This document shows positions 2,977-18,907 of a stretch of 32,000 nt of DNA, one piece after another. A program made the position numbers and the translations under genes. The DNA comes from Acaryochloris thomasi RCC1774 (GTDB lineage: Bacteria; Cyanobacteriota; Cyanobacteriia; Thermosynechococcales; Thermosynechococcaceae), in the NCBI RefSeq assembly GCF_003231495.1, contig NZ_PQWO01000019.1:1-32000 (forward strand), in the 5' to 3' direction. The first letter of the stretch is position 1; each line of letters opens with the position of its first letter. A model generated the notes under the pieces. That model had not been told where the DNA came from. It made no database searches and saw nothing but the letters and a program-made list of their open reading frames with translations.

Positions 2977-3720
2977 ATGACGGTACCTTCAGGCTGGGAA
3001 CTCCCCCAAGCAATAAAACGACGACTAGGCCAAAAAGAAGCAGGCAAGCAACGGGCAATGGTAGCAGAGGAGCATTTGTTACTGATCCTGCACAAAGTCC
3101 CAAAGCAAGGAAGTCGCAAACGCACAGGTCTCTTCTTCTGGCGCACCCCAAACGGCAGTTGGAAATATAGCGGGGGTGGTGATGGATTGGGAAAATTACG
3201 CAGCCATGTCAAAGCTTACAGTGATGCAGAACAGGCACTGACAGCTCAGTATGAGCAAGCTGCTACAGCAGCAGACTACTTTCATCTGCTTGAAAATATT
3301 GGCCCTCTAAGTCGAGCGACAGCAAACCTTTATGCAGCATTGCAGGCCGCGCGAGAAGCCATTTCTGACGATCTCAACATCATTGACCTTCGAGATGCGG
3401 CGATTGATCTGAGCCGAACCCTAGAACTACTTTATGACGACACAAAAAATGCCCTGGATTATGCGCTAGCTAAGCAGGCTGAAGAACAAGCAAGGTTAAG
3501 TCAAAAGTCTGTACGAACGGCACAACGCCTGAATATCCTAGCTGCGATTTTCCTGCCACTGACAGCTCTTTCAAGCGTTTTTGGAATGAATCTCCATAGT
3601 GGGCTAGAGGATCAGTCCACCTCTATCTTTTGGATAGTACTGATCGCGGGTATCTTCCTTGGATTTGCCACAAGAGACTGGGTTCTACGGGGCAAAGTTA
3701 GACCTTCAAACTCTAAATGA
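2977..3720 (+). CDS. short CorA-like divalent-cation transporter family protein (GMN motif)
   Basis: C-terminus RLNILAAIFLPLTALSSVFGMNL...IFWIVLIAGIFLGF gives TM1-GMN-loop-TM2, the CorA signature. A helical cytoplasmic region lies upstream. At 247 aa it is shorter than canonical CorA. Confidence 0.65.
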   Translation: MTVPSGWELPQAIKRRLGQKEAGKQRAMVAEEHLLLILHKVPKQGSRKRTGLFFWRTPNGSWKYSGGGDGLGKLRSHVKAYSDAEQALTAQYEQAATAADYFHLLENIGPLSRATANLYAALQAAREAISDDLNIIDLRDAAIDLSRTLELLYDDTKNALDYALAKQAEEQARLSQKSVRTAQRLNILAAIFLPLTALSSVFGMNLHSGLEDQSTSIFWIVLIAGIFLGFATRDWVLRGKVRPSNSK

Positions 3721-8613: not shown

Positions 8614-9600
8614 CTATTGCGACTCTAGCCAGCGAGCCGCATCTTTAGCGTGGTAGGTCAAGATTAGGTCTGCGCCCGCTCGCTTAAAGCTGGTCAGCGT
8701 TTCCATGACCACTCGTTCTTCGTCAACCCAGCCGTTGAGGGCTGCAGCCTTCACCATCGAATACTCACCCGACACGTTATAGGCCGCCACCGGCACATTG
8801 CAGGCCTGCTTTACCTGCCAAATGATATCCATATAGGCCAAGGCAGGTTTCACCATCAGCATGTCGGCTCCTTCGTGGAGGTCTAGCTCGATCTCTTTGA
8901 TCGCTTCTCTAGAATTAGCCGGATCCATCTGATAGGTGCGGCGGTCGCCAAACTGAGGCGCTGAATCCGCCGCATCTCGGAAAGGTCCGTAGTAGGCAGA
9001 AGAGTACTTAGCGGCATAGGAAAGAATCGGCAAATCCTCAAATCCAGAGGTATCTAGCCCCTCTCGAATCGCTTGCACAAACCCGTCCATCATGCCCGAA
9101 GGAGCGATGATATCGGCCCCAGCCTTAGCTTGAGACACTGCCGTTTTCTTCAGCAGCTCCAGCGTCGGGTCGTTGAGAACTCGCCCCGTCAAGTCGCCTG
9201 TTTCTAAATAGCCGCAGTGACCGTGCTGGGTATACTCGCACAGACAGGTATCGACAATCACCACCAGATCCGGCACCGCCTCTTTGACGGCTGCCGATGC
9301 CTTTTGCACAATGCCGTGATCATGCCACGCCCCTGTCGCTTCAGAGTCCTTATCATCTGGAATCCCAAACAGAATTATAGATGGGATGCCAAGGTCGTAG
9401 ACTTCTTTAGCTTCTTCTACAATCTTGTCCACCGATAGCTGATAGACTCCCGGCATCGATGTCACTTCTTGGGAAACGCTTTCCCCTGGTACCGCAAAGA
9501 GAGGATAGATCAGGTCACTAGTGGTGACGACGGTTTCTTGAACCATGCGACGCAGCTGCGGATGACTGCGGAGCCTGCGGGGACGATGTTTGGGGAACAT
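8614..9600 (-). CDS. hemB: porphobilinogen synthase (delta-aminolevulinic acid dehydratase), Zn-type
   Basis: [20 protein letters not shown] start at the internal ATG (9600) of track ORF 8614-9669. Cys-rich metal site [14 protein letters not shown]. Active-site region [11 protein letters not shown]. Confidence 0.9.
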
Positions 9601-10152
9601 GATTTTTAGCAACAATACGGTAGATAGGTTGAGCTTTGCTGAAGAAATGCAGAGTAGATGCGACAGCAAAAAGACAACACCCTATACTCTACTGTTGCAC
9701 TCGACCCCTTTCAATTCCGCGATTGTTTCTATATATTCACAGATCGATTTCAGAGTCCCTTGACGATCCATTTCTCCGAGGCTAGGATGGACGCCTACTC
9801 GGCACTGATCCCCCCTAAGTCGCCCTGTAGCTGGCTCTCGAAAGGGTACCTTGCATCGAAAGGGCAAGACACAAATTAGCAGGCCTAAGCTTTACAGTAT
9901 GGTGGCTGCTAGTGCCGAAGGGCCTTTACAAAATTTTTCTCAGACGAAGAGTGGTTACCCTTAACTCTCAAGTGGGTCATCATTCAGCATTTAATCCAAA
10001 AGCCTTTTCGTTGGGAGCTTCCGATGCTATCCTGACCCCGAGTTGAGTGCTGTAGCGTAGCTGTCTGGATTGAAAGCCTACTTCTTGTGAACAGGTCAGT
10101 TGAGTCTTCTATATAGTTTAGAGCAGCAGAAAAGACAGAAACATCTCGAAGT

Positions 10153-10199
10153 TTTTCTTCTCTTGGGGGCACTCTAAAAGCACCCCCAAGAGAAGAAAA
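10153..10199 (+). promoter_or_regulatory. 17-bp perfect stem-loop ending 5 nt upstream of the YHYH-protein start codon
   Basis: TTTTCTTCTCTTGGGGG (10153-10169), 13-nt loop, CCCCCAAGAGAAGAAAA (10183-10199). The 3' arm covers the purine-rich region where a ribosome-binding site would sit. No U-tail on either strand. Confidence 0.4.
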
Positions 10200-10204
10200 T
10201 CCCT

Positions 10205-11299
10205 ATGCACGTTAGCCAGGAGTGTCTCGTGAGCATCGGTCGGCAATCGGGTCGATTACTGCTGTCGGTTATTCTTACTTTTTCCACTAGCGGAGAAACC
10301 TACGGTGACACAACTTCTCACAATCACAAGTATTCAACGCAAAAACTGAGTCAGGCTTCTGTCAATACGAATCAGGTCAGAATCCAACTGGAAGGGGACA
10401 GCCGCTACATATACGCTAACGGCATTCCAGATCATACCCATGGTTCATTTCCCAATCCTGGCAATCCCAATAGCATCTCGCCGCAAACCTATCGATTTCG
10501 AGTACCGACAACCCCCAAATTAGCAACCCAAATAACGGCACTGCGTGGGAGCCTGTTTGGTGTCGCACTCAATGGTATTCCTTTGGATCCAGGAACAGCA
10601 GAGGTTTGGACATCTCAGGGACCCAGCCATGCTTTTAGTGCACAGAATAAAGCAGAATGGCGCTATGAAGCCCTATCAGGCCGCATTAATCTTGGGATTG
10701 ATCAAAGCCATGCTCACGTTCAGCCAACGGGTGCTTATCATTACCACGGCTTGCCGCTAGGTCTTATCCAGCAGCAAGGTCGCGATCAGCCCATCATCTT
10801 CATCGGGTATGCTGCAGATGGCTTTCCTATCTACGCTTCATCTGGAAACACTGCAGCAGTCTCAAGCTACCGAGTTAAGCAAGGACAACGCCCCAGTGGC
10901 CCAGGAGGACGCTATGATGGCACCTTTGTTCAGGACCACGAATTTATAGCTGGGCTAGGCAATCTCGATCAGTGTAATGGACGTCAGGGAAAAACCCCTG
11001 AGTATCCACAGGGGATCTATCACTACTTCATCACGACGACGTTTCCTTTCATTCCCCGTTGTTTTCGCGGCACTCCTGATATCAGCTTTAGACATCAAAA
11101 ATCTGCTGGACTGAGACAGTTTCCATCCCGTCCAAAGTCACGTCCTGCGGCCCACATAAAGCAACAGCCCCAACAACGCTTAGATCAGAATCATCGGCCA
11201 TCAGCAGGCGGGCGGCGACCGCCCTTTCCGCCTTCTGGGCATCATCATCCGTTTTCGCCACCTCACGGTTCCCCGCATCGGCATCATCCCCCTCACTAG
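10205..11299 (+). CDS. YHYH domain-containing protein with a C-terminal His/Pro/Arg-rich low-complexity tail
   Basis: Contains the AYHYHGLP motif, GIPDHTHG, GYAADGFPIY, the YHYF..T..FPFIPRCFRG ending typical of the YHYH family, and an N-terminal hydrophobic segment. Tail: ...RRPPFPPSGHHHPFSPPHGSPHRHHPPH. Confidence 0.75.
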   Translation: MHVSQECLVSIGRQSGRLLLSVILTFSTSGETYGDTTSHNHKYSTQKLSQASVNTNQVRIQLEGDSRYIYANGIPDHTHGSFPNPGNPNSISPQTYRFRVPTTPKLATQITALRGSLFGVALNGIPLDPGTAEVWTSQGPSHAFSAQNKAEWRYEALSGRINLGIDQSHAHVQPTGAYHYHGLPLGLIQQQGRDQPIIFIGYAADGFPIYASSGNTAAVSSYRVKQGQRPSGPGGRYDGTFVQDHEFIAGLGNLDQCNGRQGKTPEYPQGIYHYFITTTFPFIPRCFRGTPDISFRHQKSAGLRQFPSRPKSRPAAHIKQQPQQRLDQNHRPSAGGRRPPFPPSGHHHPFSPPHGSPHRHHPPH

Positions 11300-11390
11300 C
11301 CAATGACGTGGAGATAAATTGAGTTCCTTAGCGAAGTTGGGAATACTAGGGGCAACTGTCAACCGTACTCACCCTGAACGTTTCCTCTAG

Positions 11391-13142
11391 TTGTCTAGCT
11401 ATCAGAGAGCCATCACAGACGTAATGGAACAGGCGATTACTAAAGCTTATTCAAGATGTCAGCCGCCCGAGCAATTTAAGAACTTAGGTATGGACCTTTC
11501 TGCGATGGATAGGGCGAGACAATCTTTCTCTGGAGGGCGGTTACCAAAGATTGAGTTCCCCGGAGGGGCCGTTCCACTCAGTTCATCGCTTTATATCAAG
11601 CGTTCTAATATTGAGCAGCTAGCCTATCAAGAGCTTGACCAACCCGGTAGTTTGATCCGCATCCAGGCTCCTCAAGGAATGGGGAAACGCTCGCTTCTAT
11701 TGCGATTAATGGCCTATGCCAAGGTTCAGGATTACCAGACGGTCAGGGTCAACTTTCAGACGGCAGAGCAATCCGTTTACACAAGCTTAGATAAATTTCT
11801 CCGCTGGTTTTGTGCGAATGTAGCACGGCAGTTGAAGCAAGCAGCCTGTCTCGATCAGTACTGGGATCCAGAGATTGGGGCTAAGCTAAGCTGCACGCTC
11901 TATTTTGAAGAGTATTTACTGGAAGCCATTGAGAGTGAGATCGTTTTGGCTCTCAGTCATGTCGAGCAGATCTTCGAGCACCCTAAAATTGCGCAAGAAT
12001 TTTTGCCCATGCTGCGGTTCTGGCATGAACAGGGTAAACAGGCTGAAGCATTTCAGAAATTACGGCTGATTGTCCTCCATGCCACAGATGTCTATGTGCC
12101 TCTGCAGGTGCATCAGTCTCCGTTTAACGTTGGGCTACCGCTGCAGCTATCGCCGTTCTCCTTAAAAGATATTCAGACTTTGGCGCATCGCCACGGACTC
12201 GATTGGGACCAAAATCTGGCTCGACCGCTCATGGAGATGGTTAGCGGCCATCCGTATCTGGTGAGGCTAGCAATGTACCACATCAGCCAACAAAATATGA
12301 CCTTAGCAAAGGTGTTGGAAGAGGCTCCTACTCAGGGGGGGATTTATAATCAGCATCTGAGAGGGCTGCTAAAAACGCTGCAGCAACAGCCGGCTCTAGC
12401 GCAAGCTTTCAAAAAAGTCGTCACTTCTATCGATAGCGTGGAGCTTGAGACAATCTTGGCCCACAAGCTTAATCGTCTAGGGCTTGTACTTCTGAGAGGG
12501 AACCGATGCATCATTTCATGTGAGCTTTACCGCCTGTACTTTGCACAGCAAAAGTTAGGTCCAGTCGATGAGTGGCGGATTCGGCTTGAGCAGCTTGAGC
12601 AAGAGAATATTCATCTCAGAGCATTAGTGAACCTAGACGGTCTCACACAGATTGCAAATCGTCGTTCTTTTGATGATTATCTTGATTCTCAGTGGAAGAA
12701 TCTGACGGAGATCAAGGCTCCACTGGGTCTACTTTTACTAGATGTTGATCACTTCAAGCAATACAACGATACCTACGGCCATCCAGCAGGGGATCAGTGC
12801 CTGCAGCAGGTAGCTCAAGTTCTCCAGCGCTGTGCCAAACGCTCTTCTGATTTGGTCGCTCGCTACGGTGGTGAAGAGTTCGCCGTGGTTCTACCCCTCA
12901 CAAATGCTCAAACCTCAGCCAGACTCGCCGAGGAAATTCGGATTCAGCTAGGATTGCTTGAGATTGCCCACGAAACCTCTAGCCTTGAGGCGGGCATTGT
13001 GACGGTCAGTATTGGCGTTATCAGCGTTGTTCCTGGATCGGAGGGTAGCCCTGAAAAGCTGATTCAGGCTGCAGATAAGGCACTCTATCGAGCTAAAAAG
13101 GAAGGGCGAGACCGCATCTACACTCACTCCTCCTCAGGATAG
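11391..13142 (+). CDS. AAA-like (AAA_35/STAND-type) domain protein fused to a GGDEF diguanylate cyclase domain
   Basis: The N-terminal roughly 380 aa are paralogous to the next gene. P-loop-like APQGMGKRS (K99). A coiled-coil stalk is followed by a GGDEF domain (about 12630-13120) with GGEEF at 12867-12881 and RSSD five residues upstream. Start is uncertain: TTG at 11391 or ATG at 11424. Confidence 0.85.
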   Translation: MSSYQRAITDVMEQAITKAYSRCQPPEQFKNLGMDLSAMDRARQSFSGGRLPKIEFPGGAVPLSSSLYIKRSNIEQLAYQELDQPGSLIRIQAPQGMGKRSLLLRLMAYAKVQDYQTVRVNFQTAEQSVYTSLDKFLRWFCANVARQLKQAACLDQYWDPEIGAKLSCTLYFEEYLLEAIESEIVLALSHVEQIFEHPKIAQEFLPMLRFWHEQGKQAEAFQKLRLIVLHATDVYVPLQVHQSPFNVGLPLQLSPFSLKDIQTLAHRHGLDWDQNLARPLMEMVSGHPYLVRLAMYHISQQNMTLAKVLEEAPTQGGIYNQHLRGLLKTLQQQPALAQAFKKVVTSIDSVELETILAHKLNRLGLVLLRGNRCIISCELYRLYFAQQKLGPVDEWRIRLEQLEQENIHLRALVNLDGLTQIANRRSFDDYLDSQWKNLTEIKAPLGLLLLDVDHFKQYNDTYGHPAGDQCLQQVAQVLQRCAKRSSDLVARYGGEEFAVVLPLTNAQTSARLAEEIRIQLGLLEIAHETSSLEAGIVTVSIGVISVVPGSEGSPEKLIQAADKALYRAKKEGRDRIYTHSSSG

Positions 13143-13145
13143 GCC

Positions 13146-16100
13146 ATGCGCTATCAAATTGGCGGTAGCCTGACGGCCAACGCACCCAGCTATATCGCAC
13201 GACAGGCGGATGAAGATTTATACGAAGCGCTACGGCAGAATTCATTCTGCTACGTTCTTAATGCTCGCCAGATGGGCAAATCATCGCTGTTGGTGAACAC
13301 CCGACATCGGCTGCAGCAGCAGGGCTACCGATGCGCCGTGATCGACATGACGAATCTGGGGAGCGAAAATATCTCTCCGCTGCAGTGGTACAAGGGCATC
13401 ATTAAAGATCTCTGCCGCAGTTTTAAGCTCCGCAAAGTTTTTGATTTCCAAAGCTGGTGGCAAGAAGAAGCAGATATTTCACTACTCCAGCGCTTCAGTC
13501 GCTTCATTGGAGATGTTCTGCTGCCTCAGTTTCCTGATCAGAACCTGGTGATTTTCATTGATGAAATTGACAGCATTCTGAGCCTGCCGTTTTCGGTCGA
13601 TGACTTTTTTGCCCTGATCCGCTTTTGCTATAACCAGCGAGCGATTGATCCCAGCTATGAGCGGATTAATTTTGCGATTTTTGGGGTGGCTACGCCCTCG
13701 GATTTGATTTGCGATCGCAACCGCACCCCCTTCAATATCGGCACCTCCATTCACCTAAGCGGCTTTACCCTAGAGCAGTCTCAAACCCTAGCTCAGACCC
13801 TACCGCTCTATAAGGGCAGCAACTCTGAAATCCTCAAAGCCGTCCTTCACTGGACCAACGGACAGCCATTCTTAACGCAAAAGCTCTGTCAGCTCGTGAT
13901 TCAGTCTAGCCAAGATGCAGTAAGCGGTGGCTTATCCATCCCGCCAGGAACAGAGAGCTACTGGGTCGAGCAAATCGTTCAGCAACACATCATCTCAGAA
14001 TGGGAATCGCAGGATGAGCCAGAACATCTGCGAACAATCCGCAATCGAGTGTTGATGGACCAAGGAGCCGTGGGGCGTCGTTTGGGACTGTATCAGCAGA
14101 TTCGTCAAGGCAAGACTGTTCCCAGTGATGACAGTCGTGATCAAGTTGAATTAGTGCTGTCAGGTTTAGTCATTCGGTCTTATGGGCAGCTCCAGGTCAA
14201 AAATGAAATCTATGCAGCCGTCTTTGATTTAACCTGGGTGGAGAATCAATTGGCCCAACTACGGCCCTATGCAAGACTACTAGCGACCTGGGTCGAGTCA
14301 GCAAAAACAGATGAATCTCGGCTGCTGCGCGGGCAGGCCCTCAAAGATGCTCAGCTTTGGTCTCAGGGGAAACGGCTGAGCGATCTGGACTATCAGTTTT
14401 TAGCAGACTCAGTGGAGTGCGATCGCAACCAAGTTCAGCAAGCGCTCGAAGCCGATCGCGTCAAAGCCATCGAAGCCCAACTGATCCAGGAAAAGAGAGT
14501 CGTTAAACAACAGCGCCGCTTTTCAGTCCTATTGACCCTTGCTTTTTTAGGAGCATTGGGCTTGGGGGGAGCCACCTTCCTGCAAAATCGGCAGGCCCGT
14601 CGCCATGCCCAAACGGCTAGGGTCAGCGAAGTTAAGGCACTGATGTCCTCCGCTGAAGGAAACTTCGACTCTCATCGTCAACTAGAGGCCTTAACTCTGG
14701 CTATTTCAGCGACGCGTAAAGCGCAATTGCTAAAAGACAAACCACTACAGCAGCAGAGCCAAACCGTTCTTCGCCAGACTCTTTACGGCCTAGAAGAAGC
14801 AAACCGTTTGCCCACCGTCACTGGAGCCAGAGCCGTTTCGACGAGTCCTGACGGTCAATTCATTGTCAGTGGCCTATCCAACGGTTTGATCTACCTTTGG
14901 AGACAAGATGGAACGGTCGTCAAGACGTGGACCGGACACTCATCCAGGATTAACGACATTACCTTCAGCCCAGACCAGCAATACATACTCACAGCTTCTG
15001 CCGATCGGACCGTCAAAATGTGGCGGTTAGACGGCACTCTTATTCGGACCTTCTCTGGCCATAGGGAGGGAGTCACGGGTGTTCAAATCAGTCCTGATGG
15101 CACCTTGATTGCCTCTAGTTCCTCCAAGCAAGGCATCAAATTATGGGGCGTTGATGGAACCCTAGTTCAGGACATTCCCAAGAAAGGAGCAGCGGGCTTT
15201 AGCCCAGACAGCCAATGGTTCGTCACCTCTGGAAAGAATCATCCACTACAGATTTGGGGACGAGATGGCAAACTCAACAAAACACTCCCCCATGTGGGCC
15301 GGCCAATTCATCGCCTCACGGTTAGTCCAGATGGGCAACTGATTGCTGCAGCCTGCATTGATAAAACAGTTCGACTCATTCATATCGATGGTCGTTCCTA
15401 CAAAACGTTTACGGGACATCAGGCTCTGGTCCGCGATGTTACCTTCAGTCCTGATGGTCAACAGGTTGCATCGGTGGCAGGCGACAAGACCGTCAAGGTG
15501 TGGCAAACGCACGGCGAACTGCTGAAGACCTTTGAGGGACACCGGGCATCGGTATGGAGCATTGATTTCACCCCAGACGGGCGGCAAATTGCCTCAGCTT
15601 CAGAGGATGGCACCGTTCGGCTCTGGCAGCTTCAGAATCCGCTCCTGACCCAACTCGTGGGCAATACTGATTTCATTCCGAACCTAGCAATGAGTGCAGA
15701 TGGTCGATCCGTGGCAACAGTGGGTCCTGGCAGCGGCATTTTGCTGTGGAAGCAGGGACCAAAGGGGAAATTTTCACCCTTGCCGTACCTCCACATCAAG
15801 GGTCCAAAAGCCCATAGAGCTCCTATTCACGGGGTTGCTTTTACCCCCGATGGGAAGCAATTTGTCACGGTTGCGCGGGACGGCCTAGCGAAATTTTGGG
15901 ATCTAAACGGCACTCTTTTGCAAACATTGAAGGTGGATAAACCACTGTGGCGAGTGGCCTTTAGCGCCGATGGAGAGAGGGTTGCGATCGCAACCAGCGA
16001 CAAAACTGTCAAACTCTGGCAGCGGAATCAACAGGGGCAATTCCCCAATCAACCGACTCAGGTTCTCAAAGGCCATACTGCGATGCTCCGCACCGTCACC

Positions 16101-16652
16101 TTTAACGACAGAGATGACTTACTCGCCTCCGGCTCAGCAGATACAACGGCCAAAATCTGGCACCGCGATGGTTCCTTAAAGGCAACCTTAAAGGGACATA
16201 CTGATACGGTCCGCGGCTTAGCCTTTAGTCCCACCTCACCTCACCTTATCTCTGCCTCAAATGACAATACACTCAAACTCTGGCAGCTAGACGGAACCCT
16301 AGTCAGAACATTTATCGGTCACGATTCTAGCGTCCGGGACGTTGCTTTCCATCCCGATGGAAAGCTATTAGCTTCTGCATCAATGGACGGTACTGTAAAG
16401 GTTTGGCGCACGGATGGAACGTTGCTGCGTTCTTTAACCCACGATGCTGCAGTGCGATCGCTCACCTTTAGCCCAGACGGTCAAACTATCATTTCCGCAG
16501 GGGAAGACCAAACCGTACATCTCTGGAACTGGTCAAAAATTAAAGCTTTAGATGAACTGAACTATGCGTGTACGTGGGCGCACAACTATCTCGCCCATAA
16601 CTTAAAGGATGAACAGAGCAATCTATGTCCATCCTCTTCAGAAGGGAATTAG
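13146..16652 (+). CDS. AAA-like (AAA_35/STAND-type) NTPase with coiled coil, one hydrophobic helix and 14 WD40 repeats
   Basis: Walker A ARQMGKSS (G44-K45-S46). Walker B VIFIDEID (D139-E140). Hydrophobic helix FSVLLTLAFLGALGLGGATFL (aa 459-479, nt 14520-14582). 14 WD40 units of the form SPDG..ASAS.D.TVKLW (nt about 14818-16530). ATG lies 3 nt after the upstream stop. Confidence 0.9.
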   Translation: MRYQIGGSLTANAPSYIARQADEDLYEALRQNSFCYVLNARQMGKSSLLVNTRHRLQQQGYRCAVIDMTNLGSENISPLQWYKGIIKDLCRSFKLRKVFDFQSWWQEEADISLLQRFSRFIGDVLLPQFPDQNLVIFIDEIDSILSLPFSVDDFFALIRFCYNQRAIDPSYERINFAIFGVATPSDLICDRNRTPFNIGTSIHLSGFTLEQSQTLAQTLPLYKGSNSEILKAVLHWTNGQPFLTQKLCQLVIQSSQDAVSGGLSIPPGTESYWVEQIVQQHIISEWESQDEPEHLRTIRNRVLMDQGAVGRRLGLYQQIRQGKTVPSDDSRDQVELVLSGLVIRSYGQLQVKNEIYAAVFDLTWVENQLAQLRPYARLLATWVESAKTDESRLLRGQALKDAQLWSQGKRLSDLDYQFLADSVECDRNQVQQALEADRVKAIEAQLIQEKRVVKQQRRFSVLLTLAFLGALGLGGATFLQNRQARRHAQTARVSEVKALMSSAEGNFDSHRQLEALTLAISATRKAQLLKDKPLQQQSQTVLRQTLYGLEEANRLPTVTGARAVSTSPDGQFIVSGLSNGLIYLWRQDGTVVKTWTGHSSRINDITFSPDQQYILTASADRTVKMWRLDGTLIRTFSGHREGVTGVQISPDGTLIASSSSKQGIKLWGVDGTLVQDIPKKGAAGFSPDSQWFVTSGKNHPLQIWGRDGKLNKTLPHVGRPIHRLTVSPDGQLIAAACIDKTVRLIHIDGRSYKTFTGHQALVRDVTFSPDGQQVASVAGDKTVKVWQTHGELLKTFEGHRASVWSIDFTPDGRQIASASEDGTVRLWQLQNPLLTQLVGNTDFIPNLAMSADGRSVATVGPGSGILLWKQGPKGKFSPLPYLHIKGPKAHRAPIHGVAFTPDGKQFVTVARDGLAKFWDLNGTLLQTLKVDKPLWRVAFSADGERVAIATSDKTVKLWQRNQQGQFPNQPTQVLKGHTAMLRTVTFNDRDDLLASGSADTTAKIWHRDGSLKATLKGHTDTVRGLAFSPTSPHLISASNDNTLKLWQLDGTLVRTFIGHDSSVRDVAFHPDGKLLASASMDGTVKVWRTDGTLLRSLTHDAAVRSLTFSPDGQTIISAGEDQTVHLWNWSKIKALDELNYACTWAHNYLAHNLKDEQSNLCPSSSEGN

Positions 16653-16682
16653 CACAGACTTTTTCTTTGCACTCAGCTCTCT

Positions 16683-17912
16683 TTACTCAGGGTCAACCCA
16701 ACGGTCATCTGACTTAATCAGATCAATAAGGGCTGCGACTCCCTGATCTTCAGGGACTTTGTTTACTTCGTCGCGACCTCGATAGAGCGAGATATAGCCC
16801 GGTTGCTTGCCCACATAGCCATAGTCCGCATCCGCCATTTCACCTGGACCGTTAACAATACAGCCCATCACGGCGATATCCAGCCCCGTGAGATGATTGG
16901 TCGCCTCACGGACTTTATGTAATACCTCTTCCAAATTAAATAGAGTCCGCCCACAGGAAGGACAGGCAACGTATTCCACCATCGTCTTGCGGAGACCCAA
17001 TGCCTGCAGAATGCTGTAGCAAACCGGGATTTCTTTCTCCGGGGCTTCAGTCAACGAGACCCGCAGCGTGTCTCCAATCCCTTCAGCTAATAATGTGCCG
17101 ATGCCTGCAGTGGACTTGATTCGACCATATTCGCCATCACCGGCTTCGGTAACGCCGAGATGTAAAGGGTAGTCCATGCCTTCAGCATCCATGCGCTTTG
17201 CCATCAAGCGATAGGCGGCAAGCATCACCGGGACACGGGAGGCTTTCAGGGAAATCACGAGATTTCTAAAGTCGAGTGATTCACAAATACGAATAAACTC
17301 AAGGGCCGACTCCACCATGCCTTCGGGAGTGTCGCCGTAGGTAAACAGCATCCGCTCAGCTAGGGAGCCATGATTAACGCCAATTCGCATCGCCTTATTT
17401 TGATCTCGCAGAGAAATCACCAGCGGCTCTAGGGTTTCGCGGATCTTGTTACCAACATCGTCAAACTCAGCCTGCGTAAACTCAGTGCGATCGCTTCTCG
17501 GTTTTTCAAAGACGTATAGCCCCGGATTAATCCGCACCTTATCGACATGCTTGGCAACTTCGAGGGCAATCTTCATACCGTTATGGTGAACATCTGCCAC
17601 CAACGGCACAGCTTGATAGGTGTCAATCAGCTTTTGTCTAATTTCTGCTAGCGCCTTAGCGTGTCCCATACTGGGCACCGTGACCCGGACAATCTCGCAG
17701 CCCAGCTCATGGAGGCGACGAATCGCTGCGACAGATCCTTCTATATCTAAGGTGTCTTCATTAATCATTGATTGCACAACGACAGGCTGTCCACCGCCAA
17801 TGGTAATGTTACCCACAGGCACGGCTCGGGTTTTTCGACGCGGGATCGTAGTGTCAACGTGTTCGAGAGGACTGGCAACAGGCTGTGACAGGGTCTGCAT
17901 GAATTGAAGCAT
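16683..17912 (-). CDS. ispG: 4-hydroxy-3-methylbut-2-en-1-yl diphosphate synthase (MEP pathway)
   Basis: Full-length GcpE-type sequence: [47 protein letters not shown]. An alternative ATG lies at 17900. Confidence 0.92.
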
Positions 17913-18082: not shown

Positions 18083-18907
18083 GTGGAGCACACAATGGCA
18101 ATTGTTGGCGGAATTTTGCTTGTAGTCAGTGTTGTGTTGTTCTTTGTCCAACGCAATGCCAAGCAAAAGTTAGCCAGTATTCGACAGGCGCGTCACGGCA
18201 CAATTGCCGATCTGCAGCGCACAGCTCAAGAGATTGCGGCTGAAATCGGATCTGGGAGCTGGCGCGACTATGTCAAAGTTCGTGGCGATATCCAGTGCGC
18301 TCGCCCTCTGACCTCTGAACTAAAGCAGGTTCCCTGCGTCTACTACAAAATGACGGTGGAGCGCGAGTACGAAGAAACCGTTACCAAGCGCGATGACGAA
18401 GGACGAACGAGACAAGAAACGGAACGAAGCTCTGAAATCGTCTCTCAGAATCAGCGATCCACGCCTTTTATGCTGAGCGACAGTACAGGCGAGATTCTGG
18501 TCAATCCAAGCGATGCGTCAATTGAAACGGTTTCAATTCTCGATGAGTTTCGGGCAGAGTCATCAATGAATAGCTCCCTCTCCTTTGGGGGCTTTTCGCT
18601 ATCAATCGGAGGGGATAGAGCCGGTCGTCGCACCTTGGGCTATCGCTATCGAGAATCTATTTTGCCATTGGACCAAAAAGTTCTGGTCCTAGGACAGGTA
18701 ACGGACGCTCAAGGACCATCCGGCAGTTATGAGAACACCTGCCTAGCCATTGAAAAACCCACCGAGAAGAAGCAGAGATTTATAGTTTCTCTGAAATCAG
18801 AGGAGCAACTGCAGCAGGGCGTTTCAAGTACGGCGAAGTACGCTTTTTACGGCATGCTTTCGACTTTCGTCGCCGGTACTATTTTGCTGGGCGCTGGACT
18901 TGCATAA
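18083..18907 (+). CDS. GIDE-domain membrane protein (bacterial homologue of the MUL1/GIDE family fold)
   Basis: N-terminal TM (IVGGILLVVSVVLFF). Followed by ...PLTSELKQVPCVYYKMTVEREYEE... and PFMLSDSTGEILVNPSDASIE, a pattern typical of GIDE (PF12483-like). C-terminal TM. Start is GTG 18083 or ATG 18095. Confidence 0.6.
   Translation: MEHTMAIVGGILLVVSVVLFFVQRNAKQKLASIRQARHGTIADLQRTAQEIAAEIGSGSWRDYVKVRGDIQCARPLTSELKQVPCVYYKMTVEREYEETVTKRDDEGRTRQETERSSEIVSQNQRSTPFMLSDSTGEILVNPSDASIETVSILDEFRAESSMNSSLSFGGFSLSIGGDRAGRRTLGYRYRESILPLDQKVLVLGQVTDAQGPSGSYENTCLAIEKPTEKKQRFIVSLKSEEQLQQGVSSTAKYAFYGMLSTFVAGTILLGAGLA

Follow-up and report, generated by a model that had tools for sequence, protein, structure and literature searches.

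Two adjacent genes in a stretch of 32,000 nucleotides from Acaryochloris thomasi RCC1774 (RefSeq assembly GCF_003231495.1, contig NZ_PQWO01000019.1, positions 1 to 32,000 of the forward strand; hereafter the window) encode paralogous nucleoside triphosphatases (NTPases) of the Pfam family AAA_35. The first, open reading frame (ORF) A, ends in a GGDEF diguanylate cyclase domain, and the second, ORF B, runs on into a predicted membrane helix and WD40 repeats. Judged by alignment, two residues usual in its family are missing from A at the correct columns, namely the Walker A Ser that would bind Mg2+ and the Glu of Walker B; its cyclase domain appears catalytically complete, and genes of the A and B types are recurrent neighbours that in some proteins are fused into one chain. 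The reading that we favour, and to which we give about an even chance, is that A is a soluble cyclase with a hydrolysis-dead AAA_35 module, driven by the canonical membrane-anchored B. An initial annotation made from the sequence alone had proposed much the same; all the residues and coordinates it named were found correct, each motif lying at its place, and its interpretation as a whole is partly supported.

The AAA_35 module of ORF A and its nucleotide site

The features of A used in this section are given below. Residues are counted from the TTG at 11391 and their numbers are possibly 33 too high, for the reason given after the list; nucleotide coordinates are unaffected by the choice of start.

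11391 to 13142, forward strand: ORF A, 583 residues from TTG 11391, with AAA_35 module, stalk helix and GGDEF domain
11559 to 12545, forward strand: AAA_35 module, residues 57-385, with nucleotide-binding domain, helical domain and winged helix
11673 to 11693, forward strand: degenerate Walker A QGMGKRS, residues 95-101, with K99 retained and R100 at the position of the Mg2+-ligand Ser/Thr
11745 to 11759, forward strand: RVNFQ at the end of strand beta2, with N121 in place of an Asp conserved in at least 90% (family DFQ), a change common to the relative P0003
11946 to 11969, forward strand: degenerate Walker B LALSHVEQ, residues 186-193, with S189-H190 where the family has N-E and B has D-E
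11964 to 11966, forward strand: E192, aligned with the acid that closes the ancestral DExD box
12075 to 12089, forward strand: LHATD, in the sensor-1 region where strand beta4 ends (family consensus VHSTE; A has E233D)
12243 to 12260, forward strand: SGHPYL, the GxP motif of the helical domain, GHP being residues 286-288 (family GGHPYL, B NGQPFL)
12567 to 12632, forward strand: helical stalk from winged helix to GGDEF, residues 393-414, about 20 residues

In the public protein collection A starts at Met34 (ATG 11490, giving 550 residues), the N-termini of its homologues lie at about the same residue, and ATG 11490 is likely the real start. A matches the AAA_35 profile (PF14516) with 460.2 bits, the match covering positions 2-330 out of 331 and the gathering score being 27 bits, and its residues 414-575 match GGDEF (PF00990) with 173 bits. 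B has a partial AAA_35 match of 113.5 bits (residues 7-253, profile positions 4-245), and by these profile scores it is therefore A, not B, that is the more typical member of the family. AlphaFold2 (AF2) models gave a predicted local distance difference test (pLDDT) value of 92.2 for full-length A and 85.5 for the N-terminal module alone, the latter having been modelled separately for classification because the fold search with the full-length model was dominated by GGDEF structures. The best Foldseek match of the N-terminal model was PABY2304 (2qen, E=5e-10), and the matches, with E-values from 5e-10 to 1e-5, further included archaeal ORC/Cdc6, CED-4, Avs3, the plant NLR RPP1, Dark and MalT (structures 2qen, 1w5t, 1fnn, 8jo0, 8dgc, 7crc and 8bob). 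The layout of nucleotide-binding domain, helical domain with GxP and winged helix typical of STAND and ORC proteins is present in A, and on its predicted structure we place the AAA_35 module in the ORC/Cdc6-STAND branch of AAA+ proteins. A is not a STAND protein in the strict sense, since its C-terminus is a GGDEF domain and it has no repeat sensor such as WD40, TPR or LRR. It may be noted that searches of PDB sequences with the module, as a single sequence or as a profile, returned only chance or P-loop-only matches and nothing significant to a solved structure; the profile match to RecA, at the P-loop level, had an E-value of about 1e-8 when summed over repeats and is unusable for classification. 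A RecA/KaiC-like reading of the DFQ motif after beta2, which that match had prompted, was overturned by the placement from the fold search.

The initial annotation had suggested aligning A with other AAA_35 members to confirm the Walker columns, and the columns were upheld. The alignment of the 120 best homologues of the N-terminal module has no gaps near either Walker motif; in both AF2 models the P-loop lies between strand beta1 and helix alpha1 and S189 is the final residue of strand beta3; and hhalign comparison of the A-type and B-type profiles (98.6% probability, 230 columns) sets IFIDEIDS of B against the A-type consensus LALNEVnR and LALSHVEQ of A. The columns are thus fixed by three agreeing lines, namely alignment, predicted secondary structure and profile-profile comparison. 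The Arg that follows the P-loop Lys (K99-R100) had been reported for A, with GKSS for B, and it does stand in the right column, so that A (APQGMGKR) departs from the Walker A pattern [AG]x4GK[ST]. At the end of beta3 the Walker B pattern hhhh[D][E] is also absent, A having LALSH where LALNE is usual in the subfamily and IFIDE is found in B. Among 145 close A-type sequences Ser or Thr follows the Lys in 137 and Glu occupies the second Walker B position in 140, the dominant state being MGKSSL with LALNEV[N/Q/H]. As for the acidic pair said to be lost at S189-H190, the column is right and the Glu is indeed gone, but the norm in the subfamily of A is Asn-Glu-x-Asn/Gln/His, which is already non-canonical, and not Asp-Glu.

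Over the 131 positions conserved in at least 90% of members A departs at 17 and keeps 114, the median for other members being 3 departures; those of A include S100R, D121N, N189S, E190H, E233D and, beside GxP, G285S. A more deviant relative (L004a) has 29 such departures, yet GKSS and QE are present in it. In P-loop NTPases substitution of the Ser/Thr at this Walker A position normally cripples Mg-NTP binding. Going by its motifs A has most likely lost the ability to cycle through Mg-NTP hydrolysis, and we regard hydrolysis by A as unlikely with fairly good confidence; nucleotide may still be bound through Lys99. The claim that A probably cannot hydrolyse NTP stands as far as the lost Walker A Ser and Walker B Glu are concerned, but Glu192 is kept and hydrolysis is no more than unlikely.

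Three relatives only 56-60% identical to A are in a like motif state, P0002 and P0007 having GKRS with NQVE, and P0003 having GKSS with QHVE. When the motif columns were removed and a neighbour-joining tree computed, they grouped with A in 58 of 100 bootstraps, with P0003 as the sister of A in 46 of 100. Since the changes are present in relatives of such low identity, they are old and maintained and not a recent lesion or a sequencing error, and the degenerate site is a stable trait of the lineage, inherited rather than produced by decay. AAA_35 is a large family of 4912 clusters at 50% identity (E<=1e-3), mostly from filamentous cyanobacteria, and among 150 representatives of these clusters the commonest Walker B is D-E-V-D, the same DExD box as the DEID of B. 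Among 298 A-type domains, residues other than Ser or Thr after the P-loop Lys number 11 (six N, three R, one G and one K), all of them in domains without the Walker B Asp (p=0.004), which suggests a stepwise loss of the Mg2+ site in the subfamily of A.

The cyclase domain of ORF A and the paralogue ORF B

The C-terminal part of A contains the following features.

12630 to 13115, forward strand: GGDEF diguanylate cyclase domain, residues 414-575
12741 to 12770, forward strand: DVDHFKQYND, metal- and base-binding motif, aligned with WspR
12840 to 12851, forward strand: primary I-site RSSD, residues 484-487 (R484, D487), equivalent to R242xxD245 of WspR
12867 to 12881, forward strand: active-site GGEEF, residues 493-497, with five residues separating D487 and G493
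13071 to 13115, forward strand: ADKALYRAKKEGRDR, K/R phosphate-binding motif in the C-terminal helix, aligned with WspR

GGDEF domains must pair in order to join two GTP molecules, and in WspR and DgcB the pairing is set by a parallel stalk. The last 183 residues of A match WspR with E=5e-48 and PleD with E=8e-28. Its GGDEF domain is 47% identical to that of WspR with the DxD-FK-ND, RSSD, GGEEF and K/R phosphate motifs all matched, and the modelled domain superposes on the WspR structure 3i5b with a Foldseek template-modelling (TM) score of 0.94 and a root-mean-square deviation of 1.3 Å. AF2 places the stalk helix at residues 361-380 (Met34 numbering), and the stalk-GGDEF model superposes on the WspR stalk and on structures of GCN4-zipper-WspR fusions. 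The statement that GGEEF is kept and that RSSD lies five residues upstream, as in cyclases with an I-site, was therefore borne out motif for motif against WspR, and by its motifs the cyclase of A appears catalytically competent. Such completeness is not general among AAA_35-linked GGDEF domains: GG[DE]EF is kept in 30 of 43 and occurs together with RxxD in only 20 of 43, and about a quarter of those from P0002-P0120 have degenerate active-site motifs (GGEEL, EDDKF, EGTKF, QDDQF). None of the five copies whose Walker B has no Glu has lost GGEEF or RxxD. R242xxD245 is the core of the inhibitory site of WspR (PMC2270323), and from its equivalent RSSD the binding of cyclic di-GMP (c-di-GMP) by A is likely.

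ORF B begins 3 nucleotides past the stop of A and has the following features.

13146 to 16652, forward strand: ORF B, 1168 residues, with B-type AAA_35 module, membrane helix and WD40 repeats
13263 to 13286, forward strand: Walker A ARQMGKSS, GKSS being residues 44-47
13551 to 13571, forward strand: Walker B IFIDEID, residues 136-142 with D139 and E140, a DExD box
14520 to 14582, forward strand: predicted single transmembrane helix FSVLLTLAFLGALGLGGATFL, residues 459-479, hydropathy 2.04
14823 to 16574, forward strand: WD40 beta-propeller region, about residues 560-1143

The N-terminal 460 residues of B belong to a large separate family (4192 matches at E<=1e-5). In 120 sequences of this B-type family RQMGKSSL and F.DEIDS are invariant, and FGVATP, TPFN.G and GQPFLTQ are invariant or nearly so. 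One strongly hydrophobic segment near residue 465 is found in 105 of 108 B-type proteins (P0121-P0240), and past it come WD40 repeats, a CHASE2 domain or just a short tail with a median length of 41 residues. In B itself Pfam WD40 matches fall in 11 stretches, in addition to propeller models, and about 12 blade signatures can be counted. If the hydrophobic segment spans the membrane, as is predicted, the propellers of B would lie on the side opposite to its NTPase, which is unusual for STAND-like proteins.

Two further B-type arrangements were seen. In Scytonema (L113, 1476-6521) two B-type genes stand back to back, encoding 922 residues with CHASE2 and 506 residues, with no A-type gene between or beside them. 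In a metagenome-assembled genome (L004, 4472-7182) a B-like gene is split over two frames at the junction of NTPase and WD40, by a frameshift or an assembly error.

Pairing of A-type and B-type modules and alternative readings

With a gap of 3 nucleotides between stop and start, A is co-transcribed with B and probably translationally coupled to it; a scan of 9600-17000 for promoters and terminators gave counts equal to those in shuffled sequence and added nothing to what the gap tells. A scan of contigs with full-length A, in which the best match among species representatives was only 50% identical (Microcoleus), had returned mostly GGDEF-only matches, with useful loci confined to L001-L004, so metagenomes were scanned with the N-terminal module of A alone, independently of B, and this gave 25 A-type loci with enough flank to judge. 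A B-type gene is adjacent in 15 of the 25, and in 13 the two genes share a strand with the B-type gene immediately downstream. As to particular loci, L082 has a YHYH gene, P0003 (AAA_35-GGDEF, 57% identical to A) and a B-type WD40 gene of 1177 residues in the same order as the window; in L004, whose neighbourhood differs from that of the window, a B-like gene (55% identical) follows an A-like one (42% identical); and in Crinalium epipsammum PCC 9333 (L112) an AAA_35-GGDEF gene with GKSS and NE is followed by a B-type WD40 gene after 11 nucleotides. Many A-types with a B partner bear an N-terminal helix-turn-helix (HTH) domain, HTH_VMAP-M9, in place of GGDEF. Also, B-type and A-type modules are joined in a single polypeptide, in both orders, in 6 of the 150 representatives (P0275, P0252, P0375, P0380, P0259 and P0295), the B-type modules scoring 380-458 bits against B (212 if truncated) and the A-type modules 277-351 bits against A. 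In two of these fusions the A-type half has no P-loop Lys, namely P0275 (GSTS), where the B-type half is canonical, and P0380 (GQSS, IIGGD). Gene fusion together with conserved adjacency is good evidence that the A-type and B-type modules work together. It does not prove that only degenerate A-types need B.

Other arrangements of A-type modules were also met with. P0241 has two in tandem, and in Nostoc (L110, 3454-8622, and L111, 1426-6594) a HTH_VMAP-M9-AAA_35 gene (468 residues) and a B-type gene (520 residues) are followed by a gene for an eCIS_core protein (PF13699, 609-614 residues), a third gene that is absent from the window.

In the mechanism that we favour, B would be a signal-sensing, NTP-driven switch at the membrane which on activation engages A, by docking or by co-oligomerisation through the homologous AAA_35 surfaces. 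Such contact would pair the stalk helices of A so that two GGDEF domains meet and c-di-GMP is made, binding of the product at RSSD would damp the output, and the nucleotide cycle of A itself would have become dispensable. What the sequences show are the motifs, the class of fold, the conserved linkage of the genes and the natural fusions; that hydrolysis is lost, that A and B touch, which way the signal passes and how B lies in the membrane are what we infer here. The initial annotation had cast A as an adaptor to a catalytically competent B with feedback-limited c-di-GMP synthesis as output; the invariant motifs of B, the conserved pair and the fusions speak for the first part, and the intact primary I-site and GGEEF for the second. 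Both parts are qualified by findings that weigh against them. Most B-partnered A-types retain GKSS and NE, so pairing is not specific to degenerate copies; 10 of the 25 A-type loci have no adjacent B, including the AAA_35-GGDEF genes of Microcoleus (L001-L003) and L081, on whose short contig no B gene lies downstream of the GKRS relative P0002; and some of the fusions are metagenome gene calls, the two in A-then-B order being possibly merged adjacent genes. In the case of P0007 (L083), which also has GKRS, too little of the contig follows the gene for adjacency to be judged. As regards feedback, the I-site is completed from a second domain by a secondary Arg, R198 in WspR and R390 in PleD; R198 of WspR aligns with Glu440 of A, and because of this replacement inhibition through tetramers or cross-linking of domains in the manner of WspR and PleD is not assured in A.

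A further finding on the opposite side concerns Glu192, which lies two residues downstream of the lost Glu; the annotation had named a conserved acidic Walker B residue elsewhere in A as evidence that would count against its claim, and Glu192 partly answers to such a residue. All five close relatives without the Glu have an acid there (A SHVE, P0002 NQVE, P0003 QHVE, P0007 NQVE and P0011 SKVD), where canonical members of the subfamily carry N, Q or H. Over 298 A-type domains, position 4 is acidic in 38 of the 42 without Glu at position 2, against 65 of the 256 with it (Fisher p=5e-16, shared ancestry not being corrected for); 294 have Glu at 2 or Asp/Glu at 4, and only 4 have neither. Glu192 fits this family-wide either/or rule for the Walker B acid, and together with Lys99 it makes a non-canonical catalytic site in A possible. 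One may suppose that the site of A is rearranged but still hydrolyses NTP, or at least goes through a nucleotide cycle, that in it Glu192 replaces the Walker B Glu and Arg100 substitutes for the Mg2+ charge or contacts the phosphates, and that A switches itself, as the other AAA_35-GGDEF proteins are presumed to do. The retention of Lys99, the Gly-rich loop, the sensor-1 region and the GxP motif agrees with this, as does the place of Glu192 at a position that was ancestrally acidic, DExD being found in B and in the wider family. However, both usual Mg2+ contacts, the Walker A Ser/Thr and the position-1 Asp of Walker B, are lost together, the former loss being one that normally cripples Mg-NTP binding; R, K or G after GK is found in only 5 of the 298 domains; and besides the want of phylogenetic correction, the fourth DExD residue has no established role in the family. 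On balance we consider a self-switching A unlikely, at around one chance in five. Far less probable, and in our view very nearly negligible, is that the AAA_35 module is an evolutionary remnant on a constitutive cyclase, decaying because selection on it has relaxed, or that the motif changes are sequencing errors. The 17 departures against a median of 3 would agree with decay, but the 114 conserved positions kept, the intact ORF, the pLDDT of 92, the same motif state in three relatives 56-60% identical to A, and the survival of GKSS and QE in the more deviant L004a speak against it. A pseudogene or a sequencing error as such is ruled out by the intact frame, the confident model and the state of the relatives. 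A different objection is that A is independent of B, with AAA_35 acting as a nucleotide-independent scaffold, dimerisation or ligand-binding domain and adjacency reflecting co-regulation or ancestry. The 10 loci with no adjacent B, that of P0002 among them, are in line with it, and stalk-GGDEF alone can dimerise in WspR and DgcB. Against it stand the tight operons, whose gaps of 3-15 nucleotides are conserved between sequences 42-57% identical, and the natural fusions in both orders; also, B-type genes could sit elsewhere in the genomes where none is adjacent. To this reading, too, we assign a low probability, similar to that of the self-switching one.

The reading in which B drives a hydrolysis-dead A can be extended, more tentatively and with rather less than an even chance, to a widespread and undescribed cyanobacterial transmembrane signalling system formed by A-type and B-type AAA_35 proteins, with the nucleotide-dead adaptor A as an end-point. 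In such a system the B-type protein may be a canonical membrane-anchored STAND-like NTPase with extracytoplasmic WD40 or CHASE2 domains or only a short tail, and the A-type protein may be soluble and driven by the B-type one, with a weakened Mg2+ site (N-E-x-N) and an HTH, GGDEF, nucleotide cyclase or receiver domain as output. ORF A may then be the end-point of this weakening, where activation of B leads to feedback-limited c-di-GMP synthesis.

Genomic setting and comparison with known systems

The neighbourhood of A and B is that of an ordinary housekeeping chromosome, with hemB, ispG, an ammonium transporter gene (amt), a GH3 hydrolase and an ABC-F protein. PADLOC found no defence-system model matching A and only a repeat model matching B; given the result for A and the housekeeping neighbours, a reading of the locus as a defence island was dropped. 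Directly upstream of A, at 10205-11299 on the forward strand, is a gene for a YHYH-domain protein (PF14240) with a His/Pro-rich C-terminal tail, RPPFPPSGHHHPFSPPHGSPHRHHPPH; the order YHYH, A, B also occurs in L082 (YHYH at 169-1215) and is not found in L004 or L112. Adjoining the ammonium transporter gene, at 18083-18907 on the forward strand, is a gene for a GIDE-domain protein of 274 residues (PF12483, 138 bits, annotated as 'E3 ubiquitin ligase'). At 2977-3720 on the forward strand is an ORF of 247 residues whose similarity to the profile of the Mg2+ transporter CorA is confined to the C-terminal part of that profile (positions 152-283 of 292); it may be a short or truncated CorA-like gene.

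No functional study of AAA_35 was found in the searchable literature, the sole mention being in a list of domains accessory to sigma-70 region-4 in cyanobacterial proteins (PMC11119718). The GGDEF half of A resembles WspR and PleD in its fold, in the RSSD-x5-GGEEF spacing and in the helical stalk that precedes it, but differs from them in having an AAA_35 AAA+ domain and not a receiver domain as input module, and in the Glu440 that replaces the secondary I-site Arg. The N-terminal half of A shares its three-domain module and GxP with STAND and ORC-Cdc6 proteins (PABY2304, CED-4, Apaf-1/Dark, Avs3, plant NLRs and MalT), and B and the wider family share with STAND proteins the DExD Walker B, B having in addition WD40 repeats C-terminal to the NTPase module. 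A departs from STAND proteins in its lack of sensor repeats and its degenerate Walker A and B, and unlike cytosolic ones B has a predicted membrane helix between NTPase and WD40 that would put the repeats across the membrane.

The closest parallel in mechanism is with linked pairs of plant NLRs (RGA5/RGA4 and RRS1/RPS4), neighbouring paralogous NTPase genes that function as a unit, where the P-loop of one partner is dispensable and that of the other is required (PMC9528088). A and B are likewise adjacent paralogous NTPase genes and may form such a unit. In plants, however, the dispensable P-loop is in the sensor and the helper signals, whereas here it is the output copy A that is degenerate and the repeat copy B that is canonical, and the output of A would be c-di-GMP and not cell death. 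A second parallel is the iSTAND module of the MoxR-vWA ternary systems of cyanobacteria and other multicellular bacteria, a catalytically inactive STAND-type module that constantly accompanies active NTPases (Kaur et al. 2020, PMC7159879). The HTH_VMAP-M9 domain of these systems is found in many A-type relatives; unlike iSTAND, A has as its partner a paralogue from the same Pfam family, and no MoxR or vWA gene was found near A and B in the window. In E. coli the diguanylate cyclase DgcE is likewise under the control of a separate NTPase system, RdcA/RdcB (PMC6510439); the protein families are unrelated to those here, RdcA being a dynamin-like GTPase.

A degenerate NTPase paired with a canonical one is thus a known theme, and what is new here is the uncharacterised widespread family, the membrane-anchored partner and the c-di-GMP output. 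The placement of the acid at either of two positions warns annotators against calling an NTPase 'dead' from two canonical columns alone. If the paired model is true, the two genes would represent a new input route to c-di-GMP signalling, in which an NTP-driven membrane-anchored switch acts through a paralogous adaptor, and the family would hold a natural series of Walker-site erosion running from DExD through NExN to SHxE with GKR. They would then also be a bacterial example of the pairs of canonical and degenerate NTPases known from ORC and plant NLRs and, on the wider reading of a transmembrane signalling system, the bacterial equivalent of sensor/helper NLR pairs, with a second messenger as output.

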